Shown in pieces: positions 3,475-58,647 of a stretch of DNA of 64,000 nt. Numbering within the stretch: position 1 is the first letter of the stretch; the number at the start of each line of letters is the position of its first letter. The notes under the pieces are model-generated. The model did no database searches. It worked only from the letters and a program-made list of their open reading frames with translations, and was not told the origin of the DNA. This DNA is from Candidatus Moraniibacteriota bacterium (GTDB lineage: Bacteria > Patescibacteriota > Minisyncoccia > Moranbacterales > UBA2206), in assembly GCA_003483065.1 (NCBI GenBank), contig DMWY01000001.1, positions 72,606 through 136,605 of the forward strand, read 5' to 3'. The translations under genes and the position numbers were made by a program.

Positions 3475-3915
3475 ATGATTTTACCAATAATAACCTATCC
3501 AAATGAAATTCTTCGTCAAAAAGCGAAGAAGATAAAAGAACCAAAAAGTCGAGAAATAAAGGACTTGATTTTGGATATGCTTGAAACTATGGAAGATAGT
3601 GGTAATGCGTTGGGACTAGCTGCTCCGCAGGTGGGACAATCAGTGCAACTTTGTATTATAAAATTAGATGGAAAAACGCATATTCTAATCAACCCAAAAA
3701 TTGCTAGAAAATCTTGGGGAAAAGAAATTTGCGAAGAAGGTTGTTTGTCTTTTCCTGGGAAATTTATCCCAGTTAAGAGACACAAAAAAGTCACCGTGAA
3801 GGCTTTGGACAAAAAAGGAGAAAAAATTGAAATCAAAGCTGAGGGACTTCTCTCGCGAGCTTTGCAACACGAGATTGATCATTTAAATGGGATGCTTTTT
3901 ATAGACAAAAAATAA
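3475..3915 (+). CDS. def: peptide deformylase
   Basis: GLAAPQVG, EGCLSFPG and QHEIDHLNG metal-binding motifs. Confidence 0.9.
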   Translation: MILPIITYPNEILRQKAKKIKEPKSREIKDLILDMLETMEDSGNALGLAAPQVGQSVQLCIIKLDGKTHILINPKIARKSWGKEICEEGCLSFPGKFIPVKRHKKVTVKALDKKGEKIEIKAEGLLSRALQHEIDHLNGMLFIDKK

Positions 3916-44192: not shown

Positions 44193-45029
44193 TTAATCTA
44201 GCGGACTTTTAATTTTTCTCAAGGCTGGATTAGTCACTTTGGTATAAATTTGTGTTGTTCTAATGTTAGCATGCCCCAAGAGCTCTTGTACATAGCGCAC
44301 GTCTGTTCCATTTTCGAGTAAGTGTGTCGCAAAACTATGTCGAAGTGAATGAAATGTGGCTTCTTTTTTTATCCCCGCTTTTTTCATGGCATTTTCAAAA
44401 ACTTTTTGCGCTGTCCTCTCGGTTAATTTCCCCTGCCTCATCGGCAGACAAGCTCCGCGTTCACTGGCAAAAAAATAATCATTAGAATTTTTATTGGCAA
44501 TTAATTTTTCTACATCCGCCACGAGCTTTTCCGGAAAAACCGTAATGCGATCTTTGTTGCCTTTAGCTCCTTTGATATGAATGATAAGTTCCGCCAAATT
44601 TATATCCTTGATTTTCAAATTAATAATCTCACTCACGCGTAGCCCTCCAGAATATGCCAACGCCACCATTAATTTGTGTTTTTCATTGGAAATTTCCGCC
44701 AATATTTTTCCAATTTCATCTCGAGACAAAACGATCGGTAATTTACTTGGCGTTTTGGCGAAATGAATGTCAATTTTTCCTCTATATTTCAAAACATTCC
44801 AACAGAAAAAGTTTATCGCTTGCAAATTTTGATTAGTAGTTTGTGACGACTTCCCATCATCAATTTTGGACAATATATATCGCTTGATAAAATCAATGTC
44901 TACTTTTCCAAAATTATCTTTTTTGGCTTTTAGATAATTTTCAACACAAGCCGAATATGCTTTCACAGTTTTTGGACTATATTTTCTCAATCTCAACTCA
45001 TCTTCTAATTTTTTCAAATAGACGTCCAT
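44193..45029 (-). CDS. tyrosine recombinase (XerC/XerD-like integrase)
   Basis: Full catalytic set R...K...HxxR...H...Y (GGLRVSE, GAKGNKDR, HSLRHSFATH, LGHANI, TQIYTKV). 278 aa. Confidence 0.8.
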   Translation of the reverse strand: MDVYLKKLEDELRLRKYSPKTVKAYSACVENYLKAKKDNFGKVDIDFIKRYILSKIDDGKSSQTTNQNLQAINFFCWNVLKYRGKIDIHFAKTPSKLPIVLSRDEIGKILAEISNEKHKLMVALAYSGGLRVSEIINLKIKDINLAELIIHIKGAKGNKDRITVFPEKLVADVEKLIANKNSNDYFFASERGACLPMRQGKLTERTAQKVFENAMKKAGIKKEATFHSLRHSFATHLLENGTDVRYVQELLGHANIRTTQIYTKVTNPALRKIKSPLD

Positions 45030-45237
45030 TGATTTTTTTGCTATAATAAAATTGTAATAAAATTATACACAATATTCGCAAACTTAGCAATATTATGTAC
45101 ACTATACGAAAACACTTCGCATATAAAAGAGTTAGCTGAAATATTTTTTTGTCTTTGGTGGTGATTTAAAATTTTAGTGCATTGAACAAAGACGAAAATT
45201 TGATTTTTTATTTATTTTAAGAGGGGTAAAAAGGAAT

Positions 45238-45822
45238 ATGTTTCAATATATAGTTTTAATCGGAGCGGTCGTGCAGTTGGTTGGTATATATGTTTATATT
45301 AGAGCAACTGTCCGTGGCGAAACAAAACCAAATAGAGTCACTTGGCTGATGTGGTCTGTGGCGCCATTGATTGGATCCGTCGCAGCTTTTTCTGACGGTG
45401 TTCGTTGGGCAGCGCTTCCAGTCTTCATGTCTGGTTTTGCGCCACTTCTTGTTTTCATTGCTTCTTTTGTAAATCCCAAATCATTTTGGAAGCTGGAAAA
45501 ATTTGATTATATTTGTGGAGCTTGTTCAATTTTGGCATTAGTTCTTTGGGGGATTACAAAAGAACCATTGATTGCGATTATTTTTTCAATCGCCAGTGAT
45601 GGATTTGCGGCAGTGCCAACTATTATTAAATCTTGGAAGCACCCAGATTCTGAATCTGTTGAAGCTTACACCACTGGATTGTTCAACTCATTGACGAGTT
45701 TTTTTGCACTGAGAACATTTGGTATTTCAGAACTGGCTTTTCCAATATATTTAGTTTTGGTAAATTCATCGTTGATTGCCGCCGTCTACAAAGGACGATT
45801 GAAAAAAATAATCGCAAAATAA
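45238..45822 (+). CDS. polytopic membrane protein, unknown function
   Basis: ~6 hydrophobic helices. Confidence 0.45.
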   Translation: MFQYIVLIGAVVQLVGIYVYIRATVRGETKPNRVTWLMWSVAPLIGSVAAFSDGVRWAALPVFMSGFAPLLVFIASFVNPKSFWKLEKFDYICGACSILALVLWGITKEPLIAIIFSIASDGFAAVPTIIKSWKHPDSESVEAYTTGLFNSLTSFFALRTFGISELAFPIYLVLVNSSLIAAVYKGRLKKIIAK

Positions 45823-45940
45823 GGAGTTTTGAATTTTGGGCATTCACCCCTGACCCCTCTGCCCAAAATCCAAAACAAAAATCAAATTTTCTATTAGAAT
45901 AAGCAAAGTTTGTGCTAATAAAATAGAAGACAAAAAAATA

Positions 45941-46030
45941 CATCAGCTAACACGGCATATCTGGTTCAGAAATTTTGCACATATAATAAAATAAGGAAGG
46001 CAAAACTTCTTCTCCCAAATTGCGCTGTGG
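45941..46030. repeat. ~95-bp structured intergenic repeat, copy 1
   Basis: CATCAGCTAACACGGCATATCTGGTTCAGAAATTTTGC-loop(AAGGAAGG)-GCAAAACTTCTTCTCCCAAAT. Copies at 46920-47010 and 47780-47922 show compensatory changes in the hairpin arms. Confidence 0.6.
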
Positions 46031-46099
46031 CAAGACAAAGTTTAGTGATATAATTAAGTCAGGTGGAAATTTGAAGTTTTAGCCAATAAATATGGGCGC

Positions 46100-46310
46100 A
46101 ACTTCAGATGATGCCGAAACGATATGCAAAATGTCTCTCCCTACGGTCGTTCCATTTTGCATATCGTGCGCGCCTGACGGACGCTGACATGCTCTGTGCC
46201 GTCCCTTCGGGAGCGACACATCGCATATCAGCGCCTATCCAAAATTTCCCTTCGAAAACCCTTCGGGATTTTCTCGGAAAACTTCGGATCAGGCGCGCAC
46301 GTTAAACGAA
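46100..46310. ncRNA. candidate structured RNA of unknown class (GC-rich)
   Basis: Perfect 14-bp hairpin CGATATGCAAAATG/CATTTTGCATATCG (46120-46166). An 11-bp long-range helix TGCGCGCCTGA (46167-46177) / TCAGGCGCGCA (46289-46299) encloses several CCC-TTCG-GGA tetraloop hairpins. ~55% GC in a ~34% GC background. Strand undetermined. Confidence 0.35.
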
Positions 46311-46440
46311 ATTTTGTTCAAAAATATTTTTTCATTTTATATTTGAGCCCTTTTGAAATTTTTTGGGAAAGAAAAAACCGCCTTGGAAAACCTTGGCGGA
46401 AGCAGTTGGTCTGCTCAGTCCATGTACGAAATTAGTTGGG

Positions 46441-46773
46441 TTAAAGATTGACACGCCAGCACCTACCTAAGTAATCAGAAAATTCTTGGGAAGTCATATC
46501 TCCGTCATGAATGTCAACATTGATACATAAAGTATCACTATAATTAAAGTACTGGTATCCAACAACCTCAAAACGCATAAACACATTGGCATGCCCGCCA
46601 GTAGCTTTATCTTTTTCTCCATCAATAACTTCAATAATAGTGCCAATTGGCAATATTACCGATGAGGAGGGTAAGTCGAGAAAGTACTCAAAAGAGTCGT
46701 CGACATCTTTCCAAAAGGCATGATTTTTTTCTTCGTTAACTGAATTATTGTTGATACAAAGAACAAATTTCAT
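46441..46773 (-). CDS. hypothetical acidic cytoplasmic protein (110 aa)
   Basis: Start reassigned to the ATG at 46773, preceded by AGGAGG. No recognisable domain. Confidence 0.45.
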   Translation of the reverse strand: MKFVLCINNNSVNEEKNHAFWKDVDDSFEYFLDLPSSSVILPIGTIIEVIDGEKDKATGGHANVFMRFEVVGYQYFNYSDTLCINVDIHDGDMTSQEFSDYLGRCWRVNL

Positions 46774-46919
46774 CTTCCTTCCTCCTGTTGTTGGATTTAA
46801 TGTGCTATTTGACGGGAAATTAGCGTTCAAAGTAGTATAGCAGAAAACGCTTATCCTGTCAAGACCACGAAAAAAAATTCAAAAGGGCTTTTTAATAAGG
46901 AGTATATTTTTGAACAAGA

Positions 46920-47010
46920 CATCGTTTAACAAAGAATATCTGGTTCAAAAAATTTGCCGCAGTTAAAACTAAAAGGAGGGCAAATTTTTCTCTCCCAAAT
47001 CCCGCACTTT
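46920..47010. repeat. ~95-bp structured intergenic repeat, copy 2
   Basis: CATCGTTTAACAAAGAATATCTGGTTCAAAAAATTTGCC-loop(AAGGAGGG)-GGCAAATTTTTCTCTCCCAAAT. Confidence 0.6.
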
Positions 47011-47232
47011 TCCGTTTCGCTGTAATTTAGAGTATAATGAGATTAATAAATCAATAGGAATGTTAAGGTTTTGTGCTTAAAAACCAAAGTGCAGGACTTC
47101 AGATATTCTTAAGCGTTATGCGAAAAAACTAAAAATTTACTCTCTATTTTGAAAAGAATTTTTGGCAATTTTGCTGGTCGATAACTTGGTGTATAATATA
47201 AATAAGTTTTAATAAATTAATTTAAAGTAATT

Positions 47233-47733
47233 ATGAATCAAAAAAACATTATTGCAATTTTAGGAGTTGCTGTAGTAATTTTGCTCGGCACAACTATATA
47301 TTTTGCAACAATAAGCAATGTTAGTCAGCCAGCGCCAGTACCTGTGGTAAAACAGCCAGCAACTCCAGCTCCTATAGCGCAAACGCCAGCTACACCAGCA
47401 AATCAACAACCAGTTGCAACACAACCAACAACGACTAGTCAAAAAGTAGAAAGTAATGAAGAAATTGCAAAAAGAGTTTTGGGTTTTATTGAAGGAAAAA
47501 ATACTATCAAAATTGAAAAAACAGACGCGGATCATATTGTTGGAACAAAATGTGAAGAACCGAGCGCAGCAGACAAAGCCGCTGGCAGAGATATACCTTC
47601 CTGTGGTTATTTTTATTTAGCCAAAACAAATGGGAACTGGCAAAAAGTGCTTGAGGGAAATGGTGTAATAAAATGTAATTTATTGAAACAGTATAATTTT
47701 ACTGGTAGCATGTTAAATGGTTGTATAAATTAA
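47233..47733 (+). CDS. secreted/anchored protein with Pro/Ala/Thr/Gln-rich linker and 4-Cys C-terminal domain
   Basis: N-terminal TM/signal, PAPVPVVKQPATPAPIAQTPATPANQQP linker, C-terminal domain with four Cys. Confidence 0.5.
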   Translation: MNQKNIIAILGVAVVILLGTTIYFATISNVSQPAPVPVVKQPATPAPIAQTPATPANQQPVATQPTTTSQKVESNEEIAKRVLGFIEGKNTIKIEKTDADHIVGTKCEEPSAADKAAGRDIPSCGYFYLAKTNGNWQKVLEGNGVIKCNLLKQYNFTGSMLNGCIN

Positions 47734-47779
47734 GATTGCCAAAAATTCTTTATTTTCTAGGAAAGGAAATTTTTAGTTT

Positions 47780-47922
47780 CATCGCCTAACAAGTTGTATC
47801 AGGTTCCAGAAATTTGCCTCAATTATATTATTAAGGAGTGCAAATTTCTTCCACCCAAATTTTTGCCTTCCTTTTCTTTTTATATTACAATAAGGAAAGA
47901 AGGCAAAAACTTCTGATACAAC
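47780..47922. repeat. ~95-bp structured intergenic repeat, copy 3 (composite, bounded by a 10-bp terminal inverted repeat)
   Basis: GTTGTATCAG (47793-47802) ... CTGATACAAC (47913-47922). The interior carries one forward copy of the element plus an inverted partial copy (TTTTGCCTTCCTT / AAGGAAAGAAGGCAAAA). Confidence 0.55.
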
Positions 47923-48043
47923 TAACGTTATGTGAAATAGCCAGAAATTTCTTTTTTATTTTTTAAAATTTTTTTGGCAACTTATTTTCACGGTCGGCAT
48001 AATTTATAATACACAGGAATAATTATATTTAACTAAAATTTCT

Positions 48044-48274
48044 ATGAAAAAAATCTTGTGGATTATTGTATTGTTAATTACTATTATAATCATTGGCGTA
48101 GCTACATATTCAAAAATGCCACATTATAAAAAAATATGTTCCGATTACACCAAAAGAGAAGAATGCGTAAAAAATAGCCGTTGCGATTGGCCCGGCTCTT
48201 CTTGTGCGGTACCAGGAAAAAATTGTGGATTCACTTATGACCCTGAGAAGGATAGGTGCCTGCCAAAAAAATAA
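48044..48274 (+). CDS. small secreted Cys-rich protein (76 aa, 6 Cys)
   Basis: N-terminal TM/signal, then CSDYTKREECVKNSRCDWPGSSCAVPGKNCGFTYDPEKDRC. Confidence 0.45.
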   Translation: MKKILWIIVLLITIIIIGVATYSKMPHYKKICSDYTKREECVKNSRCDWPGSSCAVPGKNCGFTYDPEKDRCLPKK

Positions 48275-48520
48275 TAAGGGCTTTAGGTGACGGGTAAACA
48301 TCATGGTCCTCTTTCAGATAGTATTAATAAAAAGGCTCCGGTGTTCAAAGATGGACAGATACCTTGAGGTAGTGTTATATTTATTATCGGTGCTTTTTAT
48401 TTTTGGATAAGCTTATAAATTCATATCTAGTATGTTATGTTGAGATGTCGTGCAATGACGCCTTGATTTTTAGGACATCTGTAGTATACTTGAATCATAA
48501 ACAATTAGGCACTAAGCATT

Positions 48521-48841
48521 ATGATTCCAATTGCATTCTTGCGACAATTTCGCTTAGGTGATTATGCCATTTTTGATTTCGCCGTGTCACTCTTAGGATT
48601 CTATCTGCTCTCCCCTCTTTTATCAAAAATATTTTTGAAACTTCGAATTGATATCCCGCGTCAAAATTGGCTTTATTTAACTTTACCAATTGGCGTTGCC
48701 ACCCATTTGATTTTTGGAAAGATTACCCCTCTAACGCGAGATTTTATCGATATCCAAGGTCACTACATTGTGAAAATAGTGATTATAGCCTTACTACTAA
48801 TTGGACTAAATGATATTAAGATAGTTAAGAAAAAAATATGA
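48521..48841 (+). CDS. membrane protein (3 TM), unknown function
   Basis: Hydrophobic helices only. Confidence 0.4.
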   Translation: MIPIAFLRQFRLGDYAIFDFAVSLLGFYLLSPLLSKIFLKLRIDIPRQNWLYLTLPIGVATHLIFGKITPLTRDFIDIQGHYIVKIVIIALLLIGLNDIKIVKKKI

Positions 48842-49050
48842 ACAAAACAAAAGTGCAAGGAATCGCTATGATTGCTTTGGCGGTTATTCTAATTGCTATT
48901 ATAATCGCCTACACTACTATTTTTTCTGTCTTTGGTGTTAAATCTGGCGGATCAATATTGATGCTTCTTCCACTGATAATAATCGCCATCCTTTTGATTG
49001 TTGGCTTGTCTTTTCTTTTTCGCGCTGGAATTAGAAAAATGAAAAACTAA
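48838..49050 (+). CDS. small two-TM membrane protein
   Basis: 70 aa with two hydrophobic helices. Overlaps the previous gene by 4 nt (ATGA). Confidence 0.4.
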   Translation: MNKTKVQGIAMIALAVILIAIIIAYTTIFSVFGVKSGGSILMLLPLIIIAILLIVGLSFLFRAGIRKMKN

Positions 49051-58205: not shown

Positions 58206-58296
58206 TTTAATCAAATTTAATCAGTGGTGGAAAAATAATAAACTCACATTAGTATATTCGTATAAAATTCGTAATTGGTAAAGATTTTGAGCATAT

Positions 58297-58647
58297 ATCA
58301 AGGCAAATCTATAAGCCGGATTTTGTCGAGAATGATCATTTATCTAGTCCCGATATTACTATCGGGATCAAGCGGTACTTCTTATTCTTACTAGTGTAGA
58401 ACAAGACACGACCTTGCATCCAGGTAAGGATTTAGCCGTTTCACCCCAATATTACTATTGGATTCGCCCCGCCCTTTATAAATAAAAAGCTGGGTGCTCA
58501 ACCTTTCGGTTTCGCACGTCTCTGCTCGCACCTCTTAGATTGCTCTAGATGGGTGTTACCCACTACCCTTTCCGCCTCTTCGGCGGATAAATGTCCGGAC
58601 TTTCCTCTCTGACTTTACGTCAGGGCGATCATTCAATTTGCCTTGAT
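58297..58647 (-). ncRNA. rnpB: RNase P RNA (bacterial type A)
   Basis: The minus strand reads GAGGAAAGTCCGGAC (P4 5' strand), GGGTAACACCC, AGAGCAA and the 3' P4 strand ACAAAATCCGGCTTATAG. P1 pairs 5' CAAGGCAAAT with 3' ATTTGCCTTG. ~351 nt, ORF-free and GC-enriched. Confidence 0.8.

Follow-up and report, generated by a model that had tools for sequence, protein, structure and literature searches.

Three similar repeats lie within 2 kb of one another (45941-47922) in the stretch of DNA analysed here, a 64-kb window on contig DMWY01000001.1 of a Candidatus Moraniibacteriota bacterium, and the question they raise is what such copies are for. The window is AT-rich (36% GC), and the fetched loci nearest to it carry the labels Candidatus Moranbacteria or Moraniibacteriota. 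An earlier description made from the letters alone (the sequence-only reading) had proposed mobile promoter or leader modules, small RNA genes or, for the third copy, an element like a MITE (miniature inverted-repeat transposable element). We confirm the underlying observation and replace its interpretation: the repeats are probably the left parts of integron-like recombination sites, and the complete elements likely serve as attC-like sites of an integron-like gene-cassette platform run by a XerA-type recombinase.

The three ~95-bp copies are real. A repeat search of the window recovered direct copies at 45941-46021, 46920-47000 and 47780-47860 with 63-73% identity over 81 nt. A 27-nt motif from their left ends, CATCNNNTAACANNNNNTATCWGGTTC, matches only these three places in the window (shuffle expectation 0.00), and a hidden Markov model (HMM) built from the copies found no fourth copy there. 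DNA folding of the whole intergenic stretches extended each copy to the right. In each, CATC-NNN-TAAC-A is followed by 11 nt whose pairing partner lies 130-180 nt further downstream (copy 1, CGGCATATCTG/CAGATgATGCCG; copy 2, AAGAATATCTG/CAGATATTCTT; copy 3, AGTTGTATCAG/CTGATACAACT), and each downstream arm is followed by xAAC-GTTA-NNN-GAAA(T). The complete elements, of which the copies described earlier are the left part only, are as follows.

45941..46132, + strand: E1, complete attC-like site with left and right half-site HMM hits; the DNA fold pairs 45953-45963 with 46105-46116 (z=-5.4). Left parts: R'' CATC-AGC-TAAC 45941-45951, arm 45953-45963, hairpin 1 45968-46013, CCCAAAT 46014-46020. 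Right parts: hairpin 2 ~46021-46099, arm' 46105-46116, spacer AAAC, R' GATATGC 46121-46127.
46920..47126, + strand: E2, from the DNA fold, with perfect 11-nt arm complementarity. Left parts: R'' CATC-GTT-TAAC 46920-46930, arm 46932-46942, hairpin 1 46947-46993, CCCAAAT 46994-47000. Right parts: hairpin 2 ~47001-47094, arm' 47100-47110, spacer AAGC, R' GTTATGC 47115-47121.
47780..47938, + strand: E3, DNA fold a three-way junction at -28.3 kcal/mol (z=-6.1; 0/200 shuffles as stable). Left parts: R'' CATC-GCC-TAAC 47780-47790, arm 47792-47802, hairpin 1 47807-47853, CCCAAAT 47854-47860. Right parts: hairpin 2 47861-47909, arm' 47913-47923, spacer AAC, R' GTTATGT 47927-47933.

All three share the layout CATC-NNN-TAAC-A-(11-nt arm)-GTTC-(hairpin 1)-CCCAAAT-(hairpin 2)-AACTTC-(arm')-xAAC-GTTA-NNN-GAAAT, an imperfect palindrome of 150-200 nt. 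The R box is formed by CATC-NNN-TAAC paired with GTTA-NNN-GAAAT, and the boxes extend to ACATC... and ...GAAAT. It is followed by a conserved asymmetric spacer, 1 nt (A) on one side vs 4 nt (xAAC) on the other, which leaves AAC as a bulge, and then by the 11-bp covarying arm, which terminates in ATCTG/CAGAT. At the tip, two variable hairpins meet the arm in a three-way junction whose single-stranded motifs GTTC, CCCAAAT and AACTTC are conserved; the first of these hairpins is the one originally noticed. As in integrons, an inverse core (RYYYAAC) marks one end of the palindrome and a core (GTTRRRY) the other. This layout alters several earlier statements. CCCAAAT, which had been taken as the end of the repeat, is an internal junction, beyond which the element continues via hairpin 2 to the right arm and the GTTA-NNN-GAAAT box. 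The 10-bp terminal inverted repeat thought peculiar to copy 3 (GTTGTATCAG/CTGATACAAC) has an equivalent arm pair in every copy, and the second part of copy 3, read as an inverted partial copy joined to a forward one, is hairpin 2 of the common architecture.

Both further copies and covariation in a larger alignment were obtained. In a species-representative genome collection there are at least 119 exact matches to the left-end motif, with chance matches estimated at ~10 assuming uniform base composition; nearly all are in Candidate Phyla Radiation (CPR)/Patescibacteria. A few of the motif-bearing metagenome-assembled genomes (MAGs) carry archaeal labels (DPANN or other) or that of Proteobacteria, and for these mis-binning is possible. 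No match was found in 2.9 million viral contigs. At 75 of 123 left sites a complementary 11-nt arm (<=2 mismatches) occurs within 420 nt, in the context AAC(T/A)TC-arm'-xAAC-GTT(A/G)NNN-GAAAT. Half-site HMMs returned 220 left and 222 right sites, with co-oriented arrays of 2-7 elements in many loci; the shortest elements are ~105 nt and the longest >200 nt. Copies of E2 that are 83-93% identical to it, and differently flanked, occur in seven related loci (L001, L036, L039, L053, L058, L087, L097).

Across 149 elements, variable arm positions are Watson-Crick in 83-85% of cases vs 30-35% with shuffled partners, with up to four pair types; AAC/GTT is paired in 94-100%, and NNN-TAAC ... GTT(A/G)-NNN is conserved. 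Hairpin 1 also covaries, as had been proposed: among 45 distinct family members 86% of cells are paired vs 69% when shuffled, 10 of the 12 pairs have changed on both sides, and the covariation score was reached by 0/500 shuffles. We agree with the sequence-only reading that compensatory changes of this kind, here in both the arms and hairpin 1, are the sign of a selected nucleic-acid structure. Among 1609 arm cells the mismatches comprise 33 G.T vs 37 A.C; as G.T is not above A.C, this argues against a structure selected only in the RNA of one strand.

Complete elements of the family were also seen in L002, L018, L031 and L032 and on several 'Gammaproteobacteria', 'Bdellovibrionales' and 'Ignavibacteria' MAG contigs, the bins being archaeal (Woesearchaeota, Methanophagales, Thermoplasmatales) or those of non-CPR bacteria. 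Either spread of cassettes across domains or mis-binned CPR contigs would account for these. Sites with a left end only were considered as truncated sites or as attI and rejected, being complete elements with an open reading frame (ORF) inside hairpin 1. In four loci (L067, L095, L101, L074) the hairpin 1 loop encloses a whole small ORF of ~80-100 aa on a GCGAGC/GCTCGC or GCAAGC/GCTTGC stem, for example around the site at minus-strand offset 433 in L067, so that a gene can sit inside the recombination site itself.

How the elements relate to the genes between them is evident from their variable bases. Within one element, the left and right variable triplets are complementary at chance level (33-43% vs 34-44%). 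It is across the intervening gene that the boxes match, the right box of element n complementing the left box of element n+1. All four variable bases (those after the GTT of n and before the AAC of n+1) are complementary in 35% of 103 adjacent pairs, compared with 7% within the same element and 6% in random pairs. For gaps <=1.2 kb, per-position complementarity is 60-75% vs 35-45% (0/300 shuffles), and it runs outward into the flanks (82-89% vs 36-46%), broken by a conserved CA/AA mismatch. This cassette rule is obeyed perfectly in L026 and at every clear junction in the window, where GTTAGCT-GAAAT (45131) pairs with CATC-AGCTAAC (45941), GATATGC-AAAAT (46121) with CATC-GCATATC (46219) and GTTAAAC-GAAAT (46301) with CATC-GTTTAAC (46920), and GTTATGC (47115) matches GCCTAAC (47784) at 5/6 positions. 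Missed elements and decay might explain the remaining adjacent pairs. These data show that the crossover lies between arm' and NNN, at G↓TT (the arrow marks the point of exchange), and that a cassette starts TTA-NNN... and ends ...arm'-xAAC-G. With the crossover here, the bases after the G belong to the next cassette and therefore match that cassette's own inverse core, which is the arrangement found in integrons.

Upstream of the array, and transcribed divergently from it, lies the only recombinase gene found in the 64-kb window, separated from the first cassette by a candidate primary site.

44193..45029, - strand: tyrosine recombinase, 278 aa, XerA-like, presumed cassette integrase (Pfam Phage_integrase and Phage_int_SAM_4).
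45114..45142, + strand: attI-like primary site, ACTTCGCATATAAAAGA followed by GTTAGCT-GAAAT, like the right half of a cassette site only.

The window recombinase scores 221 bits on the NCBIfam model XerA_Arch (cutoff 220), and 219 bits, in two stretches, on the integron integrase model TIGR02249 (cutoff 265). The same pattern holds for all 11 recombinases tested (273-298 aa), which score best on XerA_Arch (NF040815; 207-231 bits, cutoff 220) and stay below the cutoff on TIGR02249 (194-219 bits). The closest solved structures are those of XerA (5hxy and 4a8e). Alignment to IntI4 (PDB 2a3v) is broken at the IntI-specific domain, where residues 183-236 (54) face 18 in the query, ~36 aa being missing; most homologues have no insertion at this position, and the catalytic residues are invariant in 11 homologues. 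The enzyme is, in these respects, a Xer-family recombinase with no accessory domains.

Its association with the sites is close and oriented. In 16-18 genome loci a homologous recombinase adjoins the array, always upstream and divergent. A protein-based search gave 80 metagenome loci with relatives of the recombinase (61-94% identity); sites lie upstream of the integrase in 33 of the 35 loci having >=1.5 kb there, on the divergent strand in 107 cases vs 2, and downstream of it in 0/50 metagenome loci. In 36 of the 80 recombinase-bearing contigs (L126-L205), some of them >200 kb long, the sequence stops <=600 nt upstream of the gene, and such contig ends beside the integrase are consistent with a repetitive or population-variable array that is hard to assemble.

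Crossover in the attI-like site would fall after G45131. At least 24 of 42 related loci carry ACTTCGYATATAAACGA followed by GTT(A/G)NNN ~101 nt from the start of the integrase gene; the left part of this motif is constant and its NNN varies. In the window, AGCTAA of the first cassette site is exactly complementary to TTAGCT of the attI-like site. The integrase is adjacent to this site, with the array beyond it and divergent, as in integrons; judged by sequence, 45114-45142 behaves as would be expected of an attI. The spacer between integrase and attI (45030-45113) is conserved across loci and holds an imperfect palindrome, TATACGAAAACACTTCGCATATA. Divergent promoter-like sites lie in the spacer region, at 45090-45062 toward the integrase and 45019-45047 toward the cassettes; together with the palindrome they may be accessory binding or regulatory sites. 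Two loci considered as carrying an unoccupied attI (L163, L164) were rejected, their attI being joined to a different gene.

Between this head and a conserved distal flank, the genes vary. L026 (Moranbacteria UBA4824) has the LepA-integrase flank and the distal flank in common with the window and three different cassettes between them; its distal flank GTTGTGTCGAAATGTCG stands directly after the last site, and homology resumes there at window position 48434 (GTTATGTTGAGATGTCG). Variable cassettes between conserved flanks are seen when the window is compared with L026 and with L146. Three of the four window cassette ORFs have no homologue in ~200 related loci; the genes of the distal flank are conserved. 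An ORF-less GC-rich cassette stands before the E2-type cassette in the window and after it in L097. Cassettes are 584 nt long at the median; 36 of their ORFs run in the direction of the array vs 9 against it, and the accessory functions they encode are unrelated to one another (HAD, NUDIX, glyoxalase, racemase, methyltransferases, deaminase, peptidase S51, exchanger). Together these data establish the architecture of the sites and its covariation, the position of the crossover, the oriented and near-obligate association with this recombinase clade, and the differing of cassettes between conserved flanks.

In the window, five cassettes span 45132-48434.

45132..46121, + strand: cassette 1, with a 194-aa membrane-protein ORF (45238-45822), a 5' inverted-repeat module, a 3' module and site E1.
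46122..46301, + strand: cassette 2, ORF-less and GC-rich, with a perfect 15-bp hairpin (46119-46133 / 46153-46167), inverted repeats I5 and I23, and a fold.
46219-46312: cassette 2's own divergent site, CATC-GCA-TATC-A-GCGCCTATCC ... GGATCAGGCGC-GCAC-GTTAAAC.
46302..47115, + strand: cassette 3, with a 110-aa ORF (46441-46773, - strand), promoter-like and terminator-like signals and site E2.
47116..47927, + strand: cassette 4, with a 166-aa ORF (47233-47733) that has an N-terminal hydrophobic segment, terminal inverted repeats and site E3.
47928..48434, + strand: probable cassette 5, with a 76-aa ORF (48044-48274) and a decayed site of its own.
48434..49050, + strand: conserved distal flank with a 106-aa and a 70-aa gene, outside the variable region and syntenic in L026, L069 and L146.

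Cassette ends are inverted repeats of each other over ~80 nt (range 60-100), with an identity of 0.6-0.75 vs 0.24-0.48 in controls (n=22). Those of cassette 1 are complementary (GTTAGCTGAAAT / CATCAGCTAAC); its ORF matches no Pfam family and has homologues in L028 (94%) and L073 (53%). Its two end modules, 45131-45237 and 45818-45940, are ~100-nt inverted repeats of each other, and both recur in several copies in many loci beside different ORFs (L117, L026, L033, L090, L105); the 3' module holds a 17-bp hairpin at 45826-45876. In cassette 3, GTTAAACGAAAT (46301) is complementary to CATCGTTTAAC (46920), the terminal inverted repeats measure 27-60 nt (I2, 89%; I10, 95%), and a promoter-like TTGACA-17-TATACT lies at 46862-46834. 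An 'empty' version of this cassette, in which GTTAAACGAA is joined directly to CATCGTTTAAC and followed by an E2-type site, was seen in L053 at ~3625-3690; it consists of the ends and the site only. The ends of cassette 4, GTTATGCGAAAA (47115) and CATCGCCTAAC (47780), are complementary at 5/6 positions, with inverted repeats I1 (83%, 30 nt) and I9 (95%, 20 nt). Of the site of cassette 5 there is only a decayed right-arm remnant, ...TTCATATCTAGTAT followed by GTTATGT, with a weak fold at 48275-48434.

Cassette 2 differs from the others in base composition and content. The region 46119-46312 has ~55% GC vs 36% for the genome and strong further structure, and the left end of its site was set at 46219 by comparison with homologous cassettes. 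ORF-less homologues were found in at least seven loci (L097, L021, with three copies, L057, L116, L142, L182 and L193). Because a promoter-like site with an extended -10 in E1 (46027-46054) is directed into it, cassette 2 may be a small-RNA cassette.

These data allow us to propose a mechanism by which the cassettes might move. A site would fold in single-stranded DNA, as in integrons and the CTX-phage attP, to mimic a Xer-type 11-6-11 core site. A single strand exchange by the recombinase would then take place at AA↓C, which is G↓TT on the top strand, with its product resolved by replication. Excised cassettes would be circular and would re-enter at attI.

Several points weigh against an integron-like platform. 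The cassette rule is perfect in only the 35% of adjacent pairs given above; the recombinase has no IntI-specific additional domain and stays under the integron-integrase cutoff, and it could be the host's ordinary Xer. The conserved single-stranded junction motifs and the long inverted repeats at the cassette ends are absent from known attC sites and have no role in the model. No recombination product, whether a circle or an empty site with identical flanks, was observed, and there was no presence/absence polymorphism of the array, places with an identical integrase carrying the same array or lying on contigs that end inside it. Folding in single strands, the choice of strand and actual activity are what we infer.

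The alternative that survives best, although we regard it as unlikely, is a stack of elements resembling the integrative mobile elements exploiting Xer (IMEX), in which the recombinase is the host's chromosome-dimer resolvase, the 'attI' is the dif site beside its gene (as in XerS/difSL), and the cassettes hijack the enzyme via their folded hairpin in the manner of CTX phage. The R' box with GAAAT (TTATGTGAAAT) is close to a dif arm in sequence, and an 11-6-11 geometry fits the element's left 28 bp; given what is known of XerCD/dif, xCATCNNNTAA, CANNNN and NTATCTGGTTC may, as a lead, be read as the three parts of a dif-type layout. The recombinase is XerA-like and scores about at the NF040815 cutoff. 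Candidate-phyla recombinases have, moreover, been placed in a 'Cand' subgroup with Xer-like enzymes thought essential, not with those of mobile elements (Smyshlyaev 2021; PMC8138268). Against this, GC skew is negative to either side of the locus, with no change of sign there in the 64 kb examined, and the flanking genes are on the same strand, so the locus is unlike a terminus. Nor is there a single site: each locus has several. The cassettes contain no replication, phage or plasmid genes, and the family is missing from the 2.9 million viral contigs. Mechanistically this alternative overlaps with the integron-like platform, the difference being whether the enzyme is dedicated.

Much less probable is that the elements are structured non-coding RNAs, or mobile promoter or leader modules, acting on downstream genes, as had been suggested for the window copies. 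Their helices do covary, and hairpin 2 has downstream-pointing promoter-like hexamers in E1 (46027-46054, extended -10) and E3 (47863-47891). A Shine-Dalgarno-like loop was also part of that suggestion. Hairpin 1 has such a motif in each of the three window copies, and AAGGA/AGGAG/GGAGG occurs in this hairpin in 38 of 91 family members vs ~5 expected, about eight-fold over shuffles. It does not extend to the whole family: the AAGGAG-like motif is confined to an AT-rich long-hairpin subfamily, is absent from the GC-rich short hairpins, which make up half of the family, and is followed by no start codon. The arm mismatches show none of the strand-specific G.U tolerance expected of an RNA. The elements have no Rfam match at the gathering threshold, nor any credible one at E<=10 in 45000-48600. 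A tRNA/tmRNA scan of the window was likewise negative; its only Rfam match is an RNase P RNA (bacterial class A, 58296-58644, - strand, 127.9 bits). An RNA or leader module would also leave unexplained the AAC/GTT boxes, the cassette rule, the fixed orientation and the linkage to a recombinase. As an explanation of the repeats, a mobile promoter module is unsupported; the promoter-like hexamers and the AAGGAG-like loop could have a secondary role in expression of the downstream cassette.

It is less probable still that this is an ordinary canonical integron of the kind recognised by standard tools. The RYYYAAC...GTTRRRY-like boxes, the G↓TT boundary and the divergent integrase all speak for one. 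Integrons are defined by an additional domain specific to IntI, which is inserted near patch III, measures ~35 aa and reads the extrahelical bases of the folded attC; 11/11 integrases here are without this insertion and below the TIGR02249 cutoff. In canonical attC sites the R and L boxes are 5-6 nt apart, bases are extrahelical and the length is 57-141 nt. Compared by eye, the present sites have a 1-nt vs 4-nt spacer, a conserved three-way junction (GTTC / CCCAAAT / AACTTC) and a length of 105 to >200 nt. Where attC has its known extrahelical bases, these sites have a 3-nt AAC bulge and a CA/AA mismatch, both conserved, and the boxes are longer (CATC..., ...GAAAT); neither junction, bulge nor extended boxes have been described for attC. 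A recombinase lacking the IntI-specific domain and a conserved three-way junction would make the platform integron-like in its working and not a canonical integron. The weakest alternative, a set of non-autonomous transposons that resemble MITEs and carry terminal inverted repeats, has in its favour the inverted 11-nt arm pair bounding each element core but is scarcely credible, as there are no dispersed copies in the window, every copy stands in a co-oriented array beside one recombinase, and there are no target-site duplications, element flanks being mutually unrelated and gene flanks complementary; the link to mobility that it implied is one we share.

Among known systems the resemblance to integrons, including sedentary chromosomal ones such as the Vibrio array with its VCR repeats, is the most extensive. 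It takes in the divergent integrase beside a primary site, the co-oriented array of mostly single-gene and mostly co-directional cassettes, some of them ORF-less, and an imperfect palindrome with AAC...GTT core boxes at the cassette end. The G↓TT boundary, first bases that complement the cassette's own inverse core, the resemblance of sites within a lineage and the variation of cassettes between conserved flanks are also common to both. The differences, beyond those of recombinase and site structure, are the 60-100 nt terminal inverted repeats on cassettes, the enclosure of an ORF in hairpin 1 of some sites, and the CPR hosts.

Xer-based systems share other features. At the CTX-phage attP(+) and in IMEX integrating at dif via XerCD, inverted Xer-type half-sites ~100 nt apart can fold in single-stranded DNA to a bulged Xer substrate, a Xer-family enzyme with no accessory domains suffices, and tandem arrays can build at one site; the inserts here, however, are single accessory genes and not phage or plasmid genomes, the locus is away from a skew switch, and the sites form a conserved three-way-junction family. 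XerA of the archaeal XerA/dif system is the nearest protein relative (5hxy, 4a8e) and its half-sites have the form TTA-NNN-GAAAT, and in XerS/difSL the site adjoins the recombinase gene; these systems and XerH/difH have one terminus site per chromosome for dimer resolution, unlike the arrays of sites bounding variable genes seen here. The pdif modules of Acinetobacter plasmids also place small gene modules between Xer-type sites, and there too inverted repeats flank each gene, but pdif sites are simple 28-bp duplexes that alternate in orientation, whereas those of the present family are large structured palindromes and co-oriented (107 vs 2).

Annotation pipelines call recombinase genes of this kind XerC/XerD-like and leave the arrays unannotated. 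In a literature search that did not reach most subscription journals, we came across no account of integrons, attC sites or cassette arrays from CPR bacteria, nor any paper linking integrons to these bacteria. The IntegronFinder 2 paper does not mention CPR (PMC9024848), and the IntIs of archaeal integrons do carry the additional domain (PMC9668308).

We lean, by a narrow margin, toward an undescribed lineage of integron-like platforms that is widespread in CPR/Patescibacteria and possibly shared with DPANN archaea, in which a XerA-type recombinase with no IntI domain acts on large three-way-junction attC sites. Such a lineage could be an ancestral form, intermediate between Xer/dif and integrons, or a separate invention of the cassette principle, and it might be a main route by which these reduced genomes exchange accessory genes. 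At the head of these arrays, which follow the cassette rule of integrons, stands a Xer-like enzyme lacking the IntI domain, and the sites have the 3-nt bulge, the conserved mismatch and the three-way junction as structural marks. This would bear on how integrons arose from Xer-type recombinases, as a living intermediate or a convergent solution, and it would offer a concrete mechanism of accessory-gene swapping for CPR bacteria, whose genomes are small and whose gene flow is little known.

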